The notes beneath the pieces are model-generated. The model had not been told where the DNA came from and did no database searches. It worked only from the letters and a program-made list of their open reading frames with translations. The translations under genes and the position numbers were made by a program. Below are positions 2,868 through 10,086 of a DNA stretch of 64,000 bases, piece after piece. Location of the stretch: the IMG/VR virus record IMGVR_UViG_3300032323_001417, positions 1 through 64,000 of that record; one strand, 5' to 3'. This DNA is from a virus. Position 1 is the first letter of the stretch. Every line of letters begins with the position of its first letter.

Positions 2868-3377
2868 CTAGTACCTTTCGTCTATTGAATCAATGTCTGC
2901 ATCAGATTCTAAAATCTCATACTTAGATTCATTAGAAGAGATTTCAATGTCAAAGTCATAGATGCTTAGGTCAGACACATCTTCATTAACTGGAATGGAA
3001 ACAGTTGCTTTGATTGTTACATTGAATTCAACTTCAACTTCTTTAGATAAATCAATACCAAAGATGTTTGCAATTTCAGTTGCGTGTTCTTCACCAATCT
3101 CATCAAAGTTCTCAACAAGGTATTCTTTTAACTTGTCTTGTGCTCGTGAGTTACGGTTGTTGGTTTCTTGCACTGCATCTAGTCTCCAGTAAGTTCTGGA
3201 AATGTCGTCTGCATTTTCTACTTCAAACTTTGAATCTGAAGGTGTGCCATAGTAGTAGCCCTTGCGTACTAAGATAGTTGCCTTTGGGTCATACGCTGGT
3301 GTTACTGCCACTTGGTCTGTCATTGGTGTTATAGTTGCTGGTATTCCGAATGTTGGCTCACTTGTTGTGAATTCCAC
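2868..3377 (-). CDS. Hypothetical protein
   Basis: GTG start with AAGGAG RBS; own promoter at 3411-3432. Confidence 0.75.
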   Translation of the reverse strand: MEFTTSEPTFGIPATITPMTDQVAVTPAYDPKATILVRKGYYYGTPSDSKFEVENADDISRTYWRLDAVQETNNRNSRAQDKLKEYLVENFDEIGEEHATEIANIFGIDLSKEVEVEFNVTIKATVSIPVNEDVSDLSIYDFDIEISSNESKYEILESDADIDSIDERY

Positions 3378-3379
3378 GT

Positions 3380-4174
3380 TTATTCTCCTTGTAGGTTGGT
3401 TGTTGAAACTAGTGTATCAGAGAGGTCTGACAATTCTTGCCATTCCTCTAATTCCGTGTCCCACTTGTATTTAGTGGTATCTATTGGGCAATCTTCAAAA
3501 GCATACTCAATGTCTTCATACTGACATTGACACTCTCTTTCTAATGCCTCGTAGTCTGCGTGGCTTGATGGAATGTCGTACTCATTACAGGCAATGTCTT
3601 CTCCACCTAAGAATGTGCAACTGCCACCCCAACCTTGCTCTTCCTCATACTCATAGTCAAACTCAAGAGTTGGATACTGTTCTGATAGTTTCATTAGAAC
3701 CTCACCAACAGGACTCCAAGCGGTTTGGAAATGGTACATAACAGAACCATCATCATTAACTGTTTTAATAGTGTTAGGATAATCATTATTATTATCTACT
3801 GCTACGTCCCACTTAGTTCCCCAGTTACGGCAGTTCCAATGATACCAGTCTTGGTCTTCTTTCATAGAGCGAACAAACTCTTGCATAAAAGATTCGCCAT
3901 CCATTTTGCCATCTTCATTTACTTTGATGTTCTTGTTACCCTTGAAAGTATCTGTTTCATAGTATGCTTCAAGGTCTGTTGGTTTTACAATGTTCCAAAA
4001 AGCAAATACAGGATTGTCATAGTGCTGTTCGTCAGCAACCCAAACAATTTCATTGTTTTCAAATTTGTGTTCAGGAAAATGTTTTACGAATGGCTGGTTA
4101 AGTTGTGCAACCATCTTATCTAATTCTGACTGTTCGCCAGATACAACTAATGTGTTAAATACCCAGTTTGGCAT
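3380..4174 (-). CDS. DUF1281/YubB-like ferredoxin-fold protein
   Basis: MPNWVFN, WYHWNCRNWGTKWD, FQTAWSP motifs. Confidence 0.75.
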   Translation of the reverse strand: MPNWVFNTLVVSGEQSELDKMVAQLNQPFVKHFPEHKFENNEIVWVADEQHYDNPVFAFWNIVKPTDLEAYYETDTFKGNKNIKVNEDGKMDGESFMQEFVRSMKEDQDWYHWNCRNWGTKWDVAVDNNNDYPNTIKTVNDDGSVMYHFQTAWSPVGEVLMKLSEQYPTLEFDYEYEEEQGWGGSCTFLGGEDIACNEYDIPSSHADYEALERECQCQYEDIEYAFEDCPIDTTKYKWDTELEEWQELSDLSDTLVSTTNLQGE

Positions 4175-4289
4175 TGTTACTTCTTTCTAGTAGGTTATGA
4201 TGAAATCATACCACAAGGGTCTGACATTTTCAGGGGCTCTTCTTAAACTTCTTAAATAAGTTATCCACAGGGGGCGCGGCTTAGCTCTG

Positions 4290-4363
4290 CGATCTGGATG
4301 GGACTTGAACCCACGACCTCCGCCGTGACAGGGCGGTGCTCTAACCAACTGAGCCACCAGACC
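4290..4363 (-). tRNA. tRNA-Asp(GTC), CCA not encoded
   Basis: Acceptor stem GGTCTGG/CCAGATC, D-arm, anticodon arm CCGCC-CTGTCAC-GGCGG, GGTTCAAGTC T-loop. Confidence 0.93.
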
Positions 4364-4447
4364 AAAGGTGTGCCAGGATTTAGATCTCTATCATTCAATC
4401 ACCAACAACCTGGCGGTATTGGCTACCTTTTAATTAATTGAGTTACC

Positions 4448-4924
4448 TTACCAAGAGGCTTGGTACTCAAAATAGTCGAACTTACTATTGAGGCATCTGT
4501 CAATAATACCAATAGTGTCATTCAAATCTCCAAAGTAATACTCATCATAGTTAGTAGAACCAAAGAAGAATCCACTACCTGTTGGCAATTCTTCTTCTGC
4601 TACTTCTGGATTAGCAATTACATTTATGCAAGTTTCTTTTAGAGTTTCTAAATCTTCTCTACGAACTGTAATTGGCTGACATTCATCAACACCATCTGCT
4701 AAGTTATTTACAAACCAATGATGAATCATGTTTGACTTACGCCAGTAACCCATTGGTACATCAACGGTAATTCCAGCAAAGCCAGTAGTGTCAATTACAT
4801 CTTCTAATTCAAGACTGCTGACAATTTCATTGAATAGAGGATTTATTGTGTCCTCATCAGTTTGACGATTAAAGTTGTGACGGTATACATACTCACTTGC
4901 ACGAAGGTACATGTCTAGTCCCAT
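4448..4924 (-). CDS. Conserved phage protein (MGLDMYL...YWRK...YQASW family)
   Basis: GGAG RBS before ATG 4924; motifs common in phage early regions. Confidence 0.75.
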   Translation of the reverse strand: MGLDMYLRASEYVYRHNFNRQTDEDTINPLFNEIVSSLELEDVIDTTGFAGITVDVPMGYWRKSNMIHHWFVNNLADGVDECQPITVRREDLETLKETCINVIANPEVAEEELPTGSGFFFGSTNYDEYYFGDLNDTIGIIDRCLNSKFDYFEYQASW

Positions 4925-4981
4925 TGTGGACTCCATTCTTTTGTAGGTAAGTTTATCTTAGCAGAGAGGTCTGACAGTTTT

Positions 4982-5016
4982 AAGGTGGGGTGCAAGGGTA
5001 AGAAACACCCCACCTA
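4982..5016 (-). terminator. Hairpin terminator
   Basis: AGGTGGGGTG/CACCCCACCT stem right after the stop at 5029. Confidence 0.55.
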
Positions 5017-5028
5017 AACTTGTCTTAA

Positions 5029-5184
5029 CTACTTAGCAGTAGTCCAACGGTCTTGACCATTTACATCAAGACGGATACGCATTGAGCCGTTAGCGTTCTT
5101 TACGACTTCCTGAACGATACCAGTTACTTTGCTCTTTGCTGTTACGAACTGTGAGCCAACAGTTGGGGCGATTGTCTTTGCCAT
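5029..5184 (-). CDS. Small basic beta-rich protein, 51 aa, not in track
   Basis: MAKTIAPTVGSQFVTAKSKVTGIVQEVV...; own promoter and terminator. Confidence 0.7.
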   Translation of the reverse strand: MAKTIAPTVGSQFVTAKSKVTGIVQEVVKNANGSMRIRLDVNGQDRWTTAK

Positions 5185-5283
5185 TTGCTTCTCTTTTCTT
5201 TGGGGGAATTGTTTCCCGTTGTTGTTATAGTAATACTATACCAGAAAGGTCTGACAAAATCAAATCCATTCAGGTAATTCCAG

Positions 5284-5299
5284 GGTGATAAAGATCACT
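5284..5299. promoter_or_regulatory. CRP/GlxR-like site
   Basis: GGTGA-TAAAGA-TCACT. Confidence 0.45.
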
Positions 5300-5348
5300 T
5301 CTTAAATGCTTGACAAATATGGGATCTTGGGGCGCGGCTTCGCAGCTC

Positions 5349-5477
5349 CTACACCCTTTCCCTTTCTCGCAGGTATTCAATGTAAATTTCAGTAGATGCC
5401 ATTTCACTCATTAGTCTATCTAACTTAGTAAATGTATCTTCTTCAATTACTTCTGGTTTCTTATTAAATAATTTCAT
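5349..5477 (-). CDS. Hypothetical protein (start revised to MKLFNKK)
   Basis: ATGA coupling with 5474-5623. Confidence 0.55.
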   Translation of the reverse strand: MKLFNKKPEVIEEDTFTKLDRLMSEMASTEIYIEYLRERERV

Positions 5478-5623
5478 AGCCATTCTGCTAAATCTCCATC
5501 TGCTATTTCTGAATAGTCCATACCTTGTGATTCTGCAATTGCTTCCCACAATTGTTCTTCTGTGTAGTTTCCATCTGGATACCACTCTGTTAAAATACCG
5601 TATAAATCTTTCATCTTACTCAT
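5474..5623 (-). CDS. Small acidic protein, 49 aa, not in track
   Basis: MSKMKDLYGILTEWYPDG...; TAATG coupling. Confidence 0.6.
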   Translation of the reverse strand: MSKMKDLYGILTEWYPDGNYTEEQLWEAIAESQGMDYSEIADGDLAEWL

Positions 5624-5961
5624 TATGCAAATACCTTTCCATACAATTCAACTGTGCTACCGTCATCTAAATCGGTAAGTAGATTGTTTACTAAATCTAA
5701 TACAACTGTCTTATCAAAATTGTTACCAATTTCTGAACGGTTAATTGCATAGATACCAAAACCAGTTTCATCTAAAACATAGTCTTTAATCAGGTGTGAG
5801 ATAACCATACGGGTAAAGTATGAATAGTCACCCTTGCGTGGCTGTGCGTGTACCAATGCATCAATTAAATCATTTTCCCAATTTGATTCACCCCAATGTG
5901 AATACAAGACGGTTAATGATTCTGTTCCATCATCAAATACGAAATTAATTCTTGCACCCAT
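5623..5961 (-). CDS. Conserved phage hypothetical protein (MGARINF...LYSHWG)
   Basis: ORF track; operon context. Confidence 0.75.
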   Translation of the reverse strand: MGARINFVFDDGTESLTVLYSHWGESNWENDLIDALVHAQPRKGDYSYFTRMVISHLIKDYVLDETGFGIYAINRSEIGNNFDKTVVLDLVNNLLTDLDDGSTVELYGKVFA

Positions 5962-5962
5962 T

Positions 5963-6079
5963 TTAGTAACCTGCTTCCTTTAACATTTTTTCAATTGCTT
6001 GCAATTCTTCGGTAGACAATTTCTCAATTGCCTTTTCATCTATAACACCCTCAAATAAGTTTATTAGTAGTTCACTCAT
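5963..6079 (-). CDS. Small helical protein, 38 aa, not in track
   Basis: MSELLINLFEGVIDEKAIEKL...; GAGGA RBS. Confidence 0.6.
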   Translation of the reverse strand: MSELLINLFEGVIDEKAIEKLSTEELQAIEKMLKEAGY

Positions 6080-6080
6080 T

Positions 6081-6332
6081 TTATTCCTCTTCCCAACTAG
6101 CAAAATTATTCATAGTGCAAAAACAATCGTTACACATACCAGAAATAAATCTTTCACGAATACCTGCATCATAGTCTTTCAATACATCTTGACAATAAGC
6201 ACCTTGATTGTATGCAAATAATTGTTCTGATGAAATAGAAACGGTTTTGGTTGTGCCACAATCAGGGCAAGGTAATGATGTAACGACATAACGGTCATTC
6301 ATCACTTTCATTGGATTAGTCAAAGTGAACAT
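6081..6332 (-). CDS. Zn-binding hypothetical protein (CPDC...CNDC)
   Basis: ORF track; GAAAGGA RBS; promoter at 6363-6384. Confidence 0.75.
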   Translation of the reverse strand: MFTLTNPMKVMNDRYVVTSLPCPDCGTTKTVSISSEQLFAYNQGAYCQDVLKDYDAGIRERFISGMCNDCFCTMNNFASWEEE

Positions 6333-6463
6333 AGTGTTCCTTTCGTTTGTAGGTATGATTTCATCATAGCATAAGGGTCTGACATTTTCTCAGGGGGTCC
6401 AGGCTATTTTCTTAAAAGTCTTAAAAAAGTTATCCACAGGGGGGCGCGGCTCCCCAGCTGCCC

Positions 6464-6601
6464 CTACTTGCCGTCAGTCCACCTAGAACTATTTACAAAA
6501 TCGGAATTAGAATTCTTTTTCCATTTTATTGCATCAAGAAATGCTAAGGCTGGTAGAAATAATAAACTTGCTAGAAATAATAGAAACAGAAATTTTATCA
6601 T
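6464..6601 (-). CDS. Small membrane/secreted protein, 45 aa, not in track
   Basis: MIKFLFLLFLASLLFLPALAFL hydrophobic N-terminus; TAATG coupling. Confidence 0.55.
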   Translation of the reverse strand: MIKFLFLLFLASLLFLPALAFLDAIKWKKNSNSDFVNSSRWTDGK

Positions 6602-6732
6602 TAGTCAAACAATTCCTTTTTGTGTTTTGGTTTACGCTTGTATGCTTTTTTATTTTTGTGTGGAACGGCTGCATTACTCCTACGCAACTCAAGCCTAGCC
6701 CTAAGTTGTTCAGGTGTTGCTATAAATTTCAT
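6601..6732 (-). CDS. Small basic protein with ArfA-like C-terminal motif, 43 aa, not in track
   Basis: MKFIATPEQLRARLELRRSNAAVPHKNKKAYKRKPKHKKELFD; ATGA coupling. Confidence 0.65.
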   Translation of the reverse strand: MKFIATPEQLRARLELRRSNAAVPHKNKKAYKRKPKHKKELFD

Positions 6733-7013
6733 TCTTCCTCCCATTCAGGTTCAGATACCCAAGCATCTAAACGATGACCCTCAACAATTGCAGAGGCAGG
6801 TGCATAGTTACTACCACGCCACGAAATTCCTTGAGGCAATTCAATTTCTGCAAAGTAGTCCTCATTCCAAATTGCGTTAATAGCATCTATGCAAGGCTGT
6901 ACCATTGAGGACGGTACTGGAGGATAGCAATTGTATTGCAAGTGTAGGTTAATCTGTGCCTCAAGTGGCATTGTATCCATAGTGGATAATTCAGTTGCAA
7001 AGTTTAGTCCCAT
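6729..7013 (-). CDS. Hypothetical protein (start MGLNFAT)
   Basis: ORF track; promoter at 7046-7067. Confidence 0.75.
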   Translation of the reverse strand: MGLNFATELSTMDTMPLEAQINLHLQYNCYPPVPSSMVQPCIDAINAIWNEDYFAEIELPQGISWRGSNYAPASAIVEGHRLDAWVSEPEWEEE

Positions 7014-7069
7014 TTTATTTCTCATTTCTTGTAGGTAGGGTATTTATTCTATCAGATAGGTCTGACATT

Positions 7070-7261
7070 TTAGAATGGTGGGAATGACCAACAAGGCACA
7101 AATTCCTCATAGGTCTTGTTTATTCTTTTGATAACTATTTCAGCAAACATTGGTTCAACGCCTGACGATGCAGACTTGACGGGCTGACCAATGTATTCTA
7201 AATACATCTTGACATCTTTTGAAGGAATGTCTAACTGCTTAGCAATTTCATAGACTCTCAT
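7070..7261 (-). CDS. Stand-alone translation initiation factor IF-2 N-terminal domain protein
   Basis: MRVYEIAKQLDIPSKDV...VKSASSGVE matches the IF2_N pattern RVYELAKELG..SK...V.SASS; GGAGG RBS. Confidence 0.75.
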   Translation of the reverse strand: MRVYEIAKQLDIPSKDVKMYLEYIGQPVKSASSGVEPMFAEIVIKRINKTYEEFVPCWSFPPF

Positions 7262-7410
7262 AGTGCCTCCTCAAAGTCAGGGGATTCAAAGGTGTATCCA
7301 TACACTCTTTCAAATTCATCAACAGTCATCTTACCCTTGTAGGTATCACAGCACACAACCTGTTCAGCAAACATTTCTTGCTCACAGAAACAACAAATAA
7401 ATTCTGTCAT
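7258..7410 (-). CDS. Small Cys-rich protein, 50 aa, not in track
   Basis: MTEFICCFCEQEMFAEQVVCCDTYKG...; GAGGA RBS; promoter at 7435-7456. Confidence 0.65.
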   Translation of the reverse strand: MTEFICCFCEQEMFAEQVVCCDTYKGKMTVDEFERVYGYTFESPDFEEAL

Positions 7411-7538
7411 TTTATTTCCTCTCTTTATAAGAACACTCTAGCATAGGGGTCTGACAATTTTTTCAGGGCGATTATCCACAACTTCTTAACAGCCTGTGGA
7501 TAACGGGGGCGCGGCTCTTTTTAGCTGAGCCTGGTGTG

Positions 7539-8075
7539 CTAGGCTGCACTCCCCCTATACACAACCCAGATTAGTGCTTGAATAGTGCGAGGTGTCATTG
7601 CAGTTTCTTGAGCAATTTTTTCAATAGCCTCAGACAGTTGGCTGTAGTCTGTTTTGTTAGGGCTGTCTTTTGTTAGACCTGCTGATCGCATCATCCAAAT
7701 GTCAATCGTGATTGCATTTTCATCACCTGCAATGTTGCGAGCAAATGAATTTGTTTTCTTTCCATTAAGTGCATCGAAACCAATTTCTAAAGCACGTTGA
7801 GCCATTTTAAGATTGTTAGGTAGGCAACGCATGGTGTCATCGCCATGAGCGAATCTAAGTGCCTGACGAACGTTAGTTGACCAACGCTGACGAGGTGAGA
7901 ACGCTGACACAATACTAGCCGCTTGTTCAAGCGATACATCCATGCCTCGTGTCTTGTAAATGTCTACAATCTCATGGGCAACGGCTTCAGCATCTGCATA
8001 CCATTGGGTTGCTTGTTCGATCTGTGATGCCTTAGCACTCTTAACAATTTGGCGGTAGGTATTTTCGTAGTTCAT
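7539..8075 (-). CDS. Phage protein with possible HhH-GPD/glycosylase-like fold
   Basis: WY...SAFSPRQRW..N, GKKTNSF..NI.G....TIDIWM motifs; start revised to MNYENTY. Confidence 0.6.
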   Translation of the reverse strand: MNYENTYRQIVKSAKASQIEQATQWYADAEAVAHEIVDIYKTRGMDVSLEQAASIVSAFSPRQRWSTNVRQALRFAHGDDTMRCLPNNLKMAQRALEIGFDALNGKKTNSFARNIAGDENAITIDIWMMRSAGLTKDSPNKTDYSQLSEAIEKIAQETAMTPRTIQALIWVVYRGSAA

Positions 8076-8326
8076 GTCTATCTCATTTCTAGTAGGTATC
8101 TCTGATACTAGCACACACCCCTGACAAAAACAAGACTATTAGACATTATTTTTATAAAATTTTCAGGGCAATTTCAGGGGATTTCTTAACTATCGTAACA
8201 AGGGTTATCCACAGAGCCGCGCCCCCTCGGGCGTGTCGCAGCTGTCTAGTCTGTGTATTTATCCACTAGCAAATAAATAAAAGTGGCAAGGGATAAAATT
8301 AAAACCCAAGAATAAAAACTATTCAT

Positions 8327-8479
8327 TTAGTATTCACCTCTCAACACAAATGCAAACGAGTGTTTTCCTAAATCAAAAATCAGGGAAGTATTTTTGGTTT
8401 CTGTTTTTTTATTGTAGTAAGTTGAGAAACTAATTCCAAGAATAAAAGTTCCGTCAATTTTATTATGTACAAATCTCAT
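8327..8479 (-). CDS. Hypothetical protein, 50 aa, not in track
   Basis: MRFVHNKIDGTFILGISF...; TAATG coupling. Confidence 0.55.
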   Translation of the reverse strand: MRFVHNKIDGTFILGISFSTYYNKKTETKNTSLIFDLGKHSFAFVLRGEY

Positions 8480-8661
8480 TACACACCTACCGCATCTAAA
8501 AACTTTTGTTCATCAAAGTTTGGATTATCGCTTGCAAATAAATCTGCAAAATCTTCTGCAATACTTTTTACAAGTGAAGAAATTAAAATGTTGTCTTGTC
8601 CTGCTTCTGCATAAGAATTAAAAATCTTTGCGGTTGCTATGTAGTCTTTGCGTGTCATCAT
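8479..8661 (-). CDS. Conserved phage hypothetical protein (MTRKDY...DNPNFD..KF)
   Basis: ORF track, start revised. Confidence 0.7.
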   Translation of the reverse strand: MMTRKDYIATAKIFNSYAEAGQDNILISSLVKSIAEDFADLFASDNPNFDEQKFLDAVGV

Positions 8662-8662
8662 T

Positions 8663-8830
8663 TTATTTTCCTGCCTTAGATAGTTCAAATTCGATTGCTA
8701 ACTTTGTGTAGGCTTGTTCCCACATTCTTTTATTAGCCTTTAGTTGTGTAACGCTTACGACTAAGTAAGCCAAAGCCCCAGCCAATAGGCTAGGTAGTAA
8801 GATGATTAGTGCTATTTGTATTAGTGACAT
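8663..8830 (-). CDS. Small membrane protein, 55 aa, not in track
   Basis: MSLIQIALIILLPSLLAGALAYLVV transmembrane helix; GAAAGG RBS; own promoter. Confidence 0.65.
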   Translation of the reverse strand: MSLIQIALIILLPSLLAGALAYLVVSVTQLKANKRMWEQAYTKLAIEFELSKAGK

Positions 8831-8885
8831 TGTATGCCCTTTCTTGTTGTTGTTAGTTTGATTCTAGCATAGGGGTCTGACAGTT

Positions 8886-9035
8886 TTACCTGTAGACACG
8901 CCTAGTCAAAAGTTGGATTTGTAGATTGTAGTAGTCAATCATTCGTTGATTAGTTGGGTCGTGCTTAAGGATTAACTCTAAGCCGTTTACTGCATCTACT
9001 AGCAGTCTTGCATTCTTGATTTTAGTGTAAGCCAT
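8886..9035 (-). CDS. Hypothetical protein, 49 aa, not in track
   Basis: MAYTKIKNARLLVDAVNG...; GAAAGG RBS; promoter at 9069-9090. Confidence 0.65.
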   Translation of the reverse strand: MAYTKIKNARLLVDAVNGLELILKHDPTNQRMIDYYNLQIQLLTRRVYR

Positions 9036-9215
9036 TTTGGTCTACCTTTCGTTTTATCTTATGCTTTCAGCATACACTAGGGGTCTGACATTTTTGGTAT
9101 TTCAGGGCGTGTCTAAGATGAACAGTAGGTAAACAATAATTAACAAGTTATCCACAGGATTCCAGGGCATTTCTTAACAATCGTAACAAAAGTTATCCAC
9201 AGGGGCGCGGCTCGT

Positions 9216-9231
9216 TCGAACATTTGTTCTA
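9216..9231. promoter_or_regulatory. LexA (SOS) box, Gram-positive/actinobacterial type
   Basis: TCGAAC-ATTT-GTTCTA versus consensus TCGAAC-N4-GTTCGA. Confidence 0.6.
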
Positions 9232-9245
9232 TGATGTACATCACA
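9230..9245. promoter_or_regulatory. CRP/GlxR-like site
   Basis: TATGA-TGTACA-TCACA versus TGTGA-N6-TCACA. Confidence 0.5.
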
Positions 9246-9310
9246 AAAATAGTGTCTCAAATAGTGAGATTCAGGTAGAATTTGTCAGTCAGGTGTGGTA
9301 AGTTATTACT

Positions 9311-9546
9311 ATAAAGAAAATTAAATAGTGGTTAAAAGGGATTAGGGCTTAGAAAAAAGTTTAGACCGCAAGTCTAAATGTGATTGAAAGTCCAAGTCAA
9401 ACGGAGTCTACGCTGACAGAGGTCAGTATTCACCGTCTCAGTTTCACGCTAGTGTCCTAGTCCCCTTTAACCATTATTAAATCGCTTAGTGTGAGCCTAG
9501 CAAATAAGCAACGAAAGTTGATGAGCCTAGCAAATAAAACTAAGCA
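9311..9546 (+). ncRNA. Putative structured non-coding RNA or long 5' leader
   Basis: Promoter at 9283-9304; 25-bp helix 9324-9348/9454-9478 with 3 G-U pairs; inner hairpins; second symmetric domain 9484-9545; no ORF. Confidence 0.65.
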
Positions 9547-9563
9547 TAACGAAAGGATTCATT

Positions 9564-9686
9564 ATGAATGAATTACTAATTGAAGACATCACAGATGAAG
9601 AATGTTTTGACTGTGGAGATAAGCTAACATCATGGGAATTTATTTTTTGTGTTATGTGTGATGGAATGGAACAATACGAAATCTAA
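9564..9686 (+). CDS. Zn-finger microprotein (CxxC-x11-CxxC), 40 aa, not in track
   Basis: MNELLIEDITDEECFDCGDKLTSWEFIFCVMCD; GAAAGGA RBS; paralog of 10335-10481. Confidence 0.7.
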   Translation: MNELLIEDITDEECFDCGDKLTSWEFIFCVMCDGMEQYEI

Positions 9687-9879
9687 AAAAGTCCAGGGGA
9701 TTTTAAAATTATCGTAACAAAGATAATAAAAAAATTCCGCGCCTCGTTTTCCACAGGTTGTACACATCTGTGGATAAAAGAGTTCATCTACTGTTAACCT
9801 ACGACACGCCCTATTTGGCAGAAATTGTCAGGGATGTATGCAATACTAAAGGTATTAGATAAACGAAAGAGAGAACAAA

Positions 9880-10086
9880 ATGAACTACTGTTTCTTTTGC
9901 GGTTGGGATACCGAAACCCAATTCAATGTCTGCTATACCTGCAAGGCTATAACAGATGTTGAATACACCTACACCCCTGACGTGTGCGGTGATGATGCTT
10001 GCTATGTAGTAGGCAACGAACTAAATCTTGACGGAGATTGCAATCACCTAACAGAATTCTACCAACTAGCAGACCTGACAGCCTAA
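9880..10086 (+). CDS. Cys-rich Zn-binding protein
   Basis: CFFC...CYTC; promoter at 9826-9847. Confidence 0.7.
   Translation: MNYCFFCGWDTETQFNVCYTCKAITDVEYTYTPDVCGDDACYVVGNELNLDGDCNHLTEFYQLADLTA

Follow-up and report, generated by a model that had tools for sequence, protein, structure and literature searches.

The phage record IMGVR_UViG_3300032323_001417 (IMG/VR) is 101,664 bp long, with a G+C content of 35.5% and a terminal repeat of only 123 bp, so the element described below does not lie at a genome end. The window analysed here is the first 64 kb of this record. Genes run leftward from ~9035 and rightward from 9564, and the divergent region between them holds a structured stretch (9311–9480) that begins ~7 nt downstream of a promoter. 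The first coding sequence of the rightward transcript encodes a cysteine-rich protein of 40 aa with no match in PHROG. Among GenBank phages we found no DNA relatives of this region or of 11 kb of structural genes. The features of the locus are listed in Table 1.

Table 1. Features between the early promoter and the first rightward ORF (window coordinates)
Feature	Position	Strand	Basis or remark
Promoter, TGTCAG-N10-TAnnnT family	9283..9304	+	pattern match
Left direct repeat ATTAAAT, putative target-site duplication	9320..9326	+	one copy in the empty sites of L031 and L006
5' arm of closing helix (28 pairs overall including 4 G-U; unpaired A at 9337)	9324..9352	+	
Inserted element, 149 bp, imperfect terminal inverted repeats of ~27 bp	9327..9475	+	filled versus empty sites
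Hairpin 1, 8 bp, 5-nt loop	9359..9379	+	invariant in all copies
Hairpin 2, weak 5-bp stem, 9-nt loop	9381..9399	+	in MFE structure, partly in centroid
Hairpin 3, two-part	9401..9436	+	
P3a, basal helix of hairpin 3	9401-9406 with 9431-9436	+	carries all compensatory changes
P3b, apical helix of hairpin 3, 4-nt loop	9412-9417 with 9422-9427	+	
Single-stranded junction, 12 nt	9437..9448	+	invariant
3' arm of closing helix	9449..9478	+	
Right direct repeat ATTAAAT	9476..9482	+	
Separate conserved leader element	9484..9545	+	present in many relatives that have no insertion
40-aa cysteine-rich ORF, first coding sequence of transcript	9564..9686	+	ORF list

The pattern TGTCAG-N10-TAnnnT occurs 14 times in the window (between 1481 and 10112), compared with 0.8 occurrences expected, and its copies nearly always stand upstream of an early gene; most of them read TGTCAGACC...TGnTAnnnT. 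The promoter named at 9283–9304 in a preliminary description of the locus is a true member of this family. From the usual distance to the -10 element, its transcript is predicted to start near 9311; the element lies ~16 nt behind this predicted start and would therefore be transcribed on the + strand. No terminator was found between the element and the ORF at 9564, so the element belongs to the leader of that ORF. PafBC-dependent promoters of Actinobacteria have a similar geometry, with an upstream hexamer centred near -26 (PMC11804915), and this likeness hints at an actinobacterial host. The same geometry raised the idea that the RNA might be a ligand of a PafBC-type activator, which is disfavoured, as single-stranded RNA failed to activate PafBC in vitro (PMC11804915). 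The early region is also rich in perfect DnaA boxes (TTATCCACA): 8 of the 10 in the 101.7-kb genome are located at 4261–9777, most of them adjoining promoter cassettes.

The structured stretch was first described as free of ORFs, and it indeed contains none of at least 30 aa. The sole ORF of at least 20 aa within it is a 26-aa GTG frame (9380–9460); a second frame, of 25 aa (9224–9301), ends in the promoter, upstream of the structured stretch. A small peptide encoded by the 26-aa frame was rejected, because four of its codons differ in the second allele of the element (see below) and all four changes are non-synonymous. The start codon of the 40-aa ORF is situated inside a small palindrome (9556–9575) that is predicted to form an 8-bp hairpin and is conserved in three relatives (L006, L025 and L031); judging from this predicted hairpin, the palindrome may occlude the start codon.

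The minimum free energy of the + strand RNA at 9311–9480 is -54.9 kcal/mol, compared with -30.5 ± 3.6 kcal/mol for shuffled sequences (z -6.7; none of 200 shuffles as good), whereas the minus strand folds more weakly (-46.6 kcal/mol, z -4.75). The closing helix (9324–9352 with 9449–9478) is interrupted twice, by an A/C mismatch (9337/9465) after the first 13 bp and by a one-base bulge between the next 11 bp and the last 4 bp. It is the best inverted repeat in the 64-kb window, and encloses three hairpins and the 12-nt single-stranded junction. The element folds independently inside the full leader, apart from the downstream part. The helix and inner hairpins had been read from the letters beforehand, correctly in every detail, and the folding test upholds the claim of a structured RNA: the helix at 9324–9348 with 9454–9478 has the 24 pairs, one mismatch and three G-U pairs ascribed to it, and the inner hairpins, given as 9360–9378 and 9401–9436, are also predicted, as 9359–9379 and as a two-part hairpin at 9401–9436. 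Pairing is likewise better on the + strand, as had been proposed, with seven G-U pairs and a single A/C; for the minus strand the ratio is reversed, that A/C being its sole G-U (one-sided binomial probability for the bias, ~0.035).

The inner 96 nt (9353–9448), folded alone, are no more stable than shuffles (z -1.27, with 22 of 200 as good; minus strand, z -0.52), and the whole thermodynamic signal is thus that of the closing inverted repeat. Hairpin 2 was folded differently in this separate calculation. Genome scans should take warning from this case: a very strong folding z-score may stem entirely from a terminal inverted repeat, and the inner domain of palindromic folds deserves separate testing.

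To learn how widely the element is distributed, we fetched 40 related loci via the neighbouring 191-aa protein and searched them with a covariance model, R1, built from the element. R1 matched the window and L003/L014, L004/L013, L005, L022 and L030, and it finds the element at one locus only; besides the window, just six distinct assemblies carry it. It detected no element in L002, L021 or L023–L026, which are 98–99% identical in the 191-aa protein, nor in any of the more distant relatives among the 40 loci. The carriers are a few uncultured phages, probably of freshwater origin. Since the element is missing from near-identical phages, it can be neither an origin nor a packaging site, and it cannot be a leader that the phage depends on; the candidate roles of essential origin and packaging site were rejected on this ground.

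BLAST maps, read together with the sequences themselves, reveal three architectures in the close group. The first comprises promoter, element, leader and ORF; the second comprises promoter, leader and ORF, with the element missing (L025 and L026); and in the third both leader and ORF are missing from this place (L002, L021, L023 and L024). L029 likewise lacks the element but has the promoter and leader. Clearly, the early region is a mosaic. A block containing the element, the leader, the 40-aa ORF and a DnaA-box module (9289–9816) is located between two copies of the promoter core, and is missing as a unit from the near-identical L002, L021, L023 and L024; in L002 a homologue of the ORF and a leader element are found elsewhere, the leader there preceding a leftward gene. 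On comparison of these sequences, the absence of the block is best described as cassette shuffling between promoter repeats.

Two relatives preserve what appear to be empty sites. In L031 the right flank is exactly that of the window, and in L006 the left flank is common with the window; both have a single ATTAAAT and no element. The 17 distinct versions of the leader in relatives all start 14–25 nt behind the -10 element, the extra 160 bases at this position being restricted to the clade of the window. No other insertions were found at the same leader position in relatives, the remaining leaders all being short. By these comparisons the element appears to be a discrete insertion, with the classic filled-site/empty-site picture of a small inverted-repeat element. 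None of the relatives offered an empty site that matches the window exactly on both flanks. ATTAAAT is also AT-rich and close to a palindrome, and what looks like a duplication could therefore be a joint left by recombination or deletion.

This distribution bears on a role at the DNA level, in which a cruciform or single-strand hairpin would serve replication, priming or protein binding among the dense DnaA boxes. Both strands fold significantly as DNA (z -4.7 and -4.5), the early region at 4261–9777 holds the 8 of 10 perfect DnaA boxes mentioned above, and the cumulative GC-skew minimum is at 8–9 kb. Nevertheless we regard such a role as very improbable. That near-identical phages do without the element excludes an essential origin or packaging signal, the DnaA boxes go with every early promoter cassette rather than with the element in particular, and the G-U asymmetry favours RNA. 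The skew follows the direction of transcription and is thus no independent evidence.

The carriers fall into two alleles, allele 1 in the window, L003 and L004, and allele 2 in L022, L005 and L030, on backgrounds that are ~3–12% diverged (~5% between L022 and L003). Within the element, the window differs from L022 by 8 substitutions. Seven of the 8 are in the 6-bp helix P3a, where they form three double compensatory pairs and repair an A/A mismatch; the eighth changes a G-U to an A-U pair in the closing helix. None of the eight breaks a pair, and when eight substitutions were placed at random the observed pairing was reached in only ~5e-4 of trials. Allele 2 has the same fold (-55.8 kcal/mol, z -7.65). 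Loops and junctions are identical between the alleles, a conservation that is statistically not meaningful with only two alleles. Covariation among homologues had been set beforehand as the test of the structured RNA, and it is found as compensatory change in one helix, P3a. Together with the G-U bias, this change supports selection for pairing on the transcribed strand, as far as one evolutionary event in one helix can support it.

Few other differences between carriers are present in the stretch from ~9300 to 9700 beyond the P3a cluster. It is possible that a single multi-base event lies behind the cluster, such as templated correction within a quasi-palindrome or conversion of the patch from another copy. 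On that basis the element might be a passive, functionless insertion or recombination scar, with the inverted repeats explaining the whole fold, an account that we consider unlikely, though it deserves serious weight. It would fit a thermodynamic signal that is entirely in the inverted repeat, the dispensability of the element, and seven changes within 12 nt that resemble one event in surroundings that show few. Against it, 4 changes within 5 nt would still have to arise in one of the arms before templating could act, no donor copy was found, the eighth change likewise preserves a pair, and the G-U pairs are biased towards the transcribed strand. Pairing in P3a would not be expected to persist in a passive insertion, and the substitution pattern therefore points to a function of the fold beyond mere tolerance.

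The RNA had been left unassigned in the preliminary description, and assignment to an Rfam family likewise failed here. Rfam 15 gave no match here at the gathering score, with which the whole window was searched, nor any at E<=10 within 9000–9900; covariance models of known families, including 6S RNA, Y RNA, ribozymes and riboswitches, did not match. The sole feature reported by the Rfam and tRNA searches was a tRNA-Asp at 4289–4363, outside the structured stretch. Several other candidates were rejected on gene content or architecture. A retron non-coding RNA was rejected because a reverse transcriptase (RVT_1) is found nowhere in the phage; a bacterial Y RNA (YrlA) because there is no TROVE domain, no tRNA-like call by ARAGORN at the site and no Rfam match; an element of the IS200 type because the phage has no Y1 transposase; and a riboswitch, typified by broad conservation and by a short, switchable closing helix tied to an expression platform, because the 28-pair closing helix folds independently of the downstream leader and the element occurs in one narrow clade only. 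The observation is of a real feature that belongs to no known family and is dispensable, with a function that is putative.

Searches for further copies gave the same single locus throughout. The 101.7-kb genome has one copy only, and scans of IMG/VR with three motifs (hairpin 1, the repeat core and hairpin 3) recovered this locus alone, apart from chance matches that were rejected by the model. Paired exact repeat cores were matched 18 times in 185,579 species genomes, a collection outside which the host may lie, and none of the matches was homologous inside; they are tandem-unit palindromes of the GGTTAAAG type, mostly from Bacteroidota, plus a Streptococcus sequence. No copy was found in plasmids. 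Long inverted repeats were also noted in L050, L052, L057, L058, L060, L062 and L066 (Bacteroidota MAGs) and in L055 and L065. These are built of ~8–9-nt tandem units of the GGTTAAAG type with their complement on the other arm, and enclose 60–100 nt; they seem to form a family of palindromes built from repeats, the inside of which is unrelated to the phage element.

The element shares much with MITEs, which are small (50–800 bp) and non-coding, have terminal inverted repeats of at least 10–15 bp and target-site duplications of 2–10 bp, and exist as several copies at different sites. At 149 bp it has no ORF of at least 30 aa; its imperfect arms are ~27 bp long, and ATTAAAT is present twice, with a single copy at the same position in L031 and L006. 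Its own genome, IMG/VR, the 185,579 species genomes and plasmids together yielded one locus, and this single known locus is the chief reason not to class it as a typical or strict MITE. MITEs are further paired with a cognate transposase that has matching ends; in the phage itself three transposase families were searched, Y1_Tnp, DDE_Tnp_1 and rve, and none was found. MITEs in viral genomes (vMITEs) are documented and rare, occurring in 0.2% of viruses, and have been recognised either by their multiple copies or because they match cellular MITEs (PMC11602168). The phage element resembles vMITEs as a small element with inverted and direct repeats inside a phage genome, but differs from them in that no cellular or second viral copy was found.

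An alternative is that the leader is processed to a stable RNA of ~150 nt which acts in trans as an accessory phage RNA, a decoy, sponge or anti-defence molecule that binds a protein or RNA of the host or phage, with P3a as a fast-changing helix in which pairing matters and sequence does not. The position of the RNA as the first product of a strong early promoter would suit such a role, as would the selection on P3a pairing with loops and junctions unchanged on backgrounds ~5% diverged. Its patchy, accessory occurrence in a mosaic early region is also like that of counter-defence cargo, in our interpretation. Nevertheless we consider a trans-acting RNA improbable: both a terminator and a defined 3' end are missing, the inner domain is thermodynamically unremarkable (z -1.27), the RNA has no relative in Rfam, and no partner gene was found to co-occur with the element, Ro/TROVE, reverse transcriptase and RNase III all being missing from the phage. 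The small-RNA sponge or anti-defence decoy offered in the preliminary description is unsupported. In a more specific form, which seems quite improbable, the element would be a horizontally acquired, self-contained RNA gene, and a stable ~150-nt RNA, excised by RNase III from the first early transcript, would act in trans, perhaps decoying a host defence or regulatory protein, with the fast-changing yet always paired P3a as the specificity determinant. If true, the element would represent a new class of accessory phage RNA, one that spreads as an inverted-repeat cassette.

The other early suggestion, a regulatory leader for the gene at 9564, comes nearer the truth; no terminator intervenes before the ORF, and the element folds alone as a domain inside the leader. 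We tentatively favour a composite explanation, to which we would give somewhat less than an even chance: a MITE-like palindromic insertion that forms a co-transcribed leader domain rich in double-stranded RNA and is probably an RNase III substrate acting in cis. On this composite reading, a 149-bp non-coding palindrome of the MITE type would have been inserted into a short 5' leader, between the early promoter and the conserved leader element upstream of the 40-aa ORF. In the transcript, its inverted repeats would pair as a helix of ~28 bp closing a three-hairpin junction. This long double-stranded stem would be a substrate for host RNase III, and its cleavage would cut the mRNA off from its 5' end and alter the stability or translation of the downstream message, with a hairpin RNA of ~150 nt as a by-product. 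An RNase III site needs at least about two helical turns of double-stranded RNA, and a 24-bp helix plus a 4-bp helix is predicted behind the promoter. No RNase III gene was found in the phage, and any cleavage would thus be by the host enzyme. Transcription, cleavage by RNase III and the effect on expression are what we infer from this arrangement.

One close parallel is found in bacteria. The Correia elements (CREE/nemis) of Neisseria are inverted-repeat insertions whose RNA, according to two reports, binds RNase III, is cleaved or protected by it, and so controls adjacent genes (PMC2649163, PMC2229807). Correia elements and similar bacterial MITEs (ERIC and RUP) are ~100–160 bp long and non-coding, have terminal inverted repeats of ~26 bp and a flanking duplication, and are inserted in intergenic or leader DNA, where they are co-transcribed with neighbouring genes as long RNA hairpins. 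The phage element is built alike and lies in a comparable position, its co-transcription being predicted. In contrast to them, it has no sequence similarity to these families, is flanked by a 7-bp repeat rather than TA, and is known from a single locus rather than hundreds of copies. It also resides in a lytic-type phage genome without a known transposase, and its cleavage by RNase III is a prediction.

A second comparison is with the lambda N leader and the T7 early processing sites, which are RNase III-sensitive leader hairpins in early transcripts. Processing at these sites alters translation or stability, and the sites are conserved, integral to their genomes, and simple hairpins of ~20 bp. 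In the phage, too, a long double-stranded stem separates the early promoter from the first gene, but here it belongs to a dispensable insertion that closes a branched domain of 96 nt.

If the composite explanation is true, the locus would be a clean natural case in which a palindromic insertion turns part of a phage early leader into long double-stranded RNA, and the close relatives with and without the element provide a ready-made comparison. It would also mean that selection on RNA pairing can retain and mould MITE-like elements, which are rare in phages, and it gives a way into the post-transcriptional control used by uncultured phages of fresh water.

Two further observations concern repeats in this group of phages. 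In L012, a more distant relative, clusters of palindromic repeats (26–44 nt, 75–92% complementary) are present at 1494–1608 and 3234–3604. The leader element at 9484–9545 has an outer helix and a central hairpin, the latter flanked by two identical 15-nt repeats (GAGCCTAGCAAATAA), and recurs in L002, L006 (two copies), L008–L010, L025, L029, L031, L033, L037, L038, L041, L046 and L047. Sequence changes in its central stem and outer helix preserve pairing across 17 distinct versions, and the repeats do not vary; the first gene that follows the leader element differs from case to case and can lie on either strand. In this pattern of variation, the leader element resembles a translational operator or a site bound by a dimeric factor.
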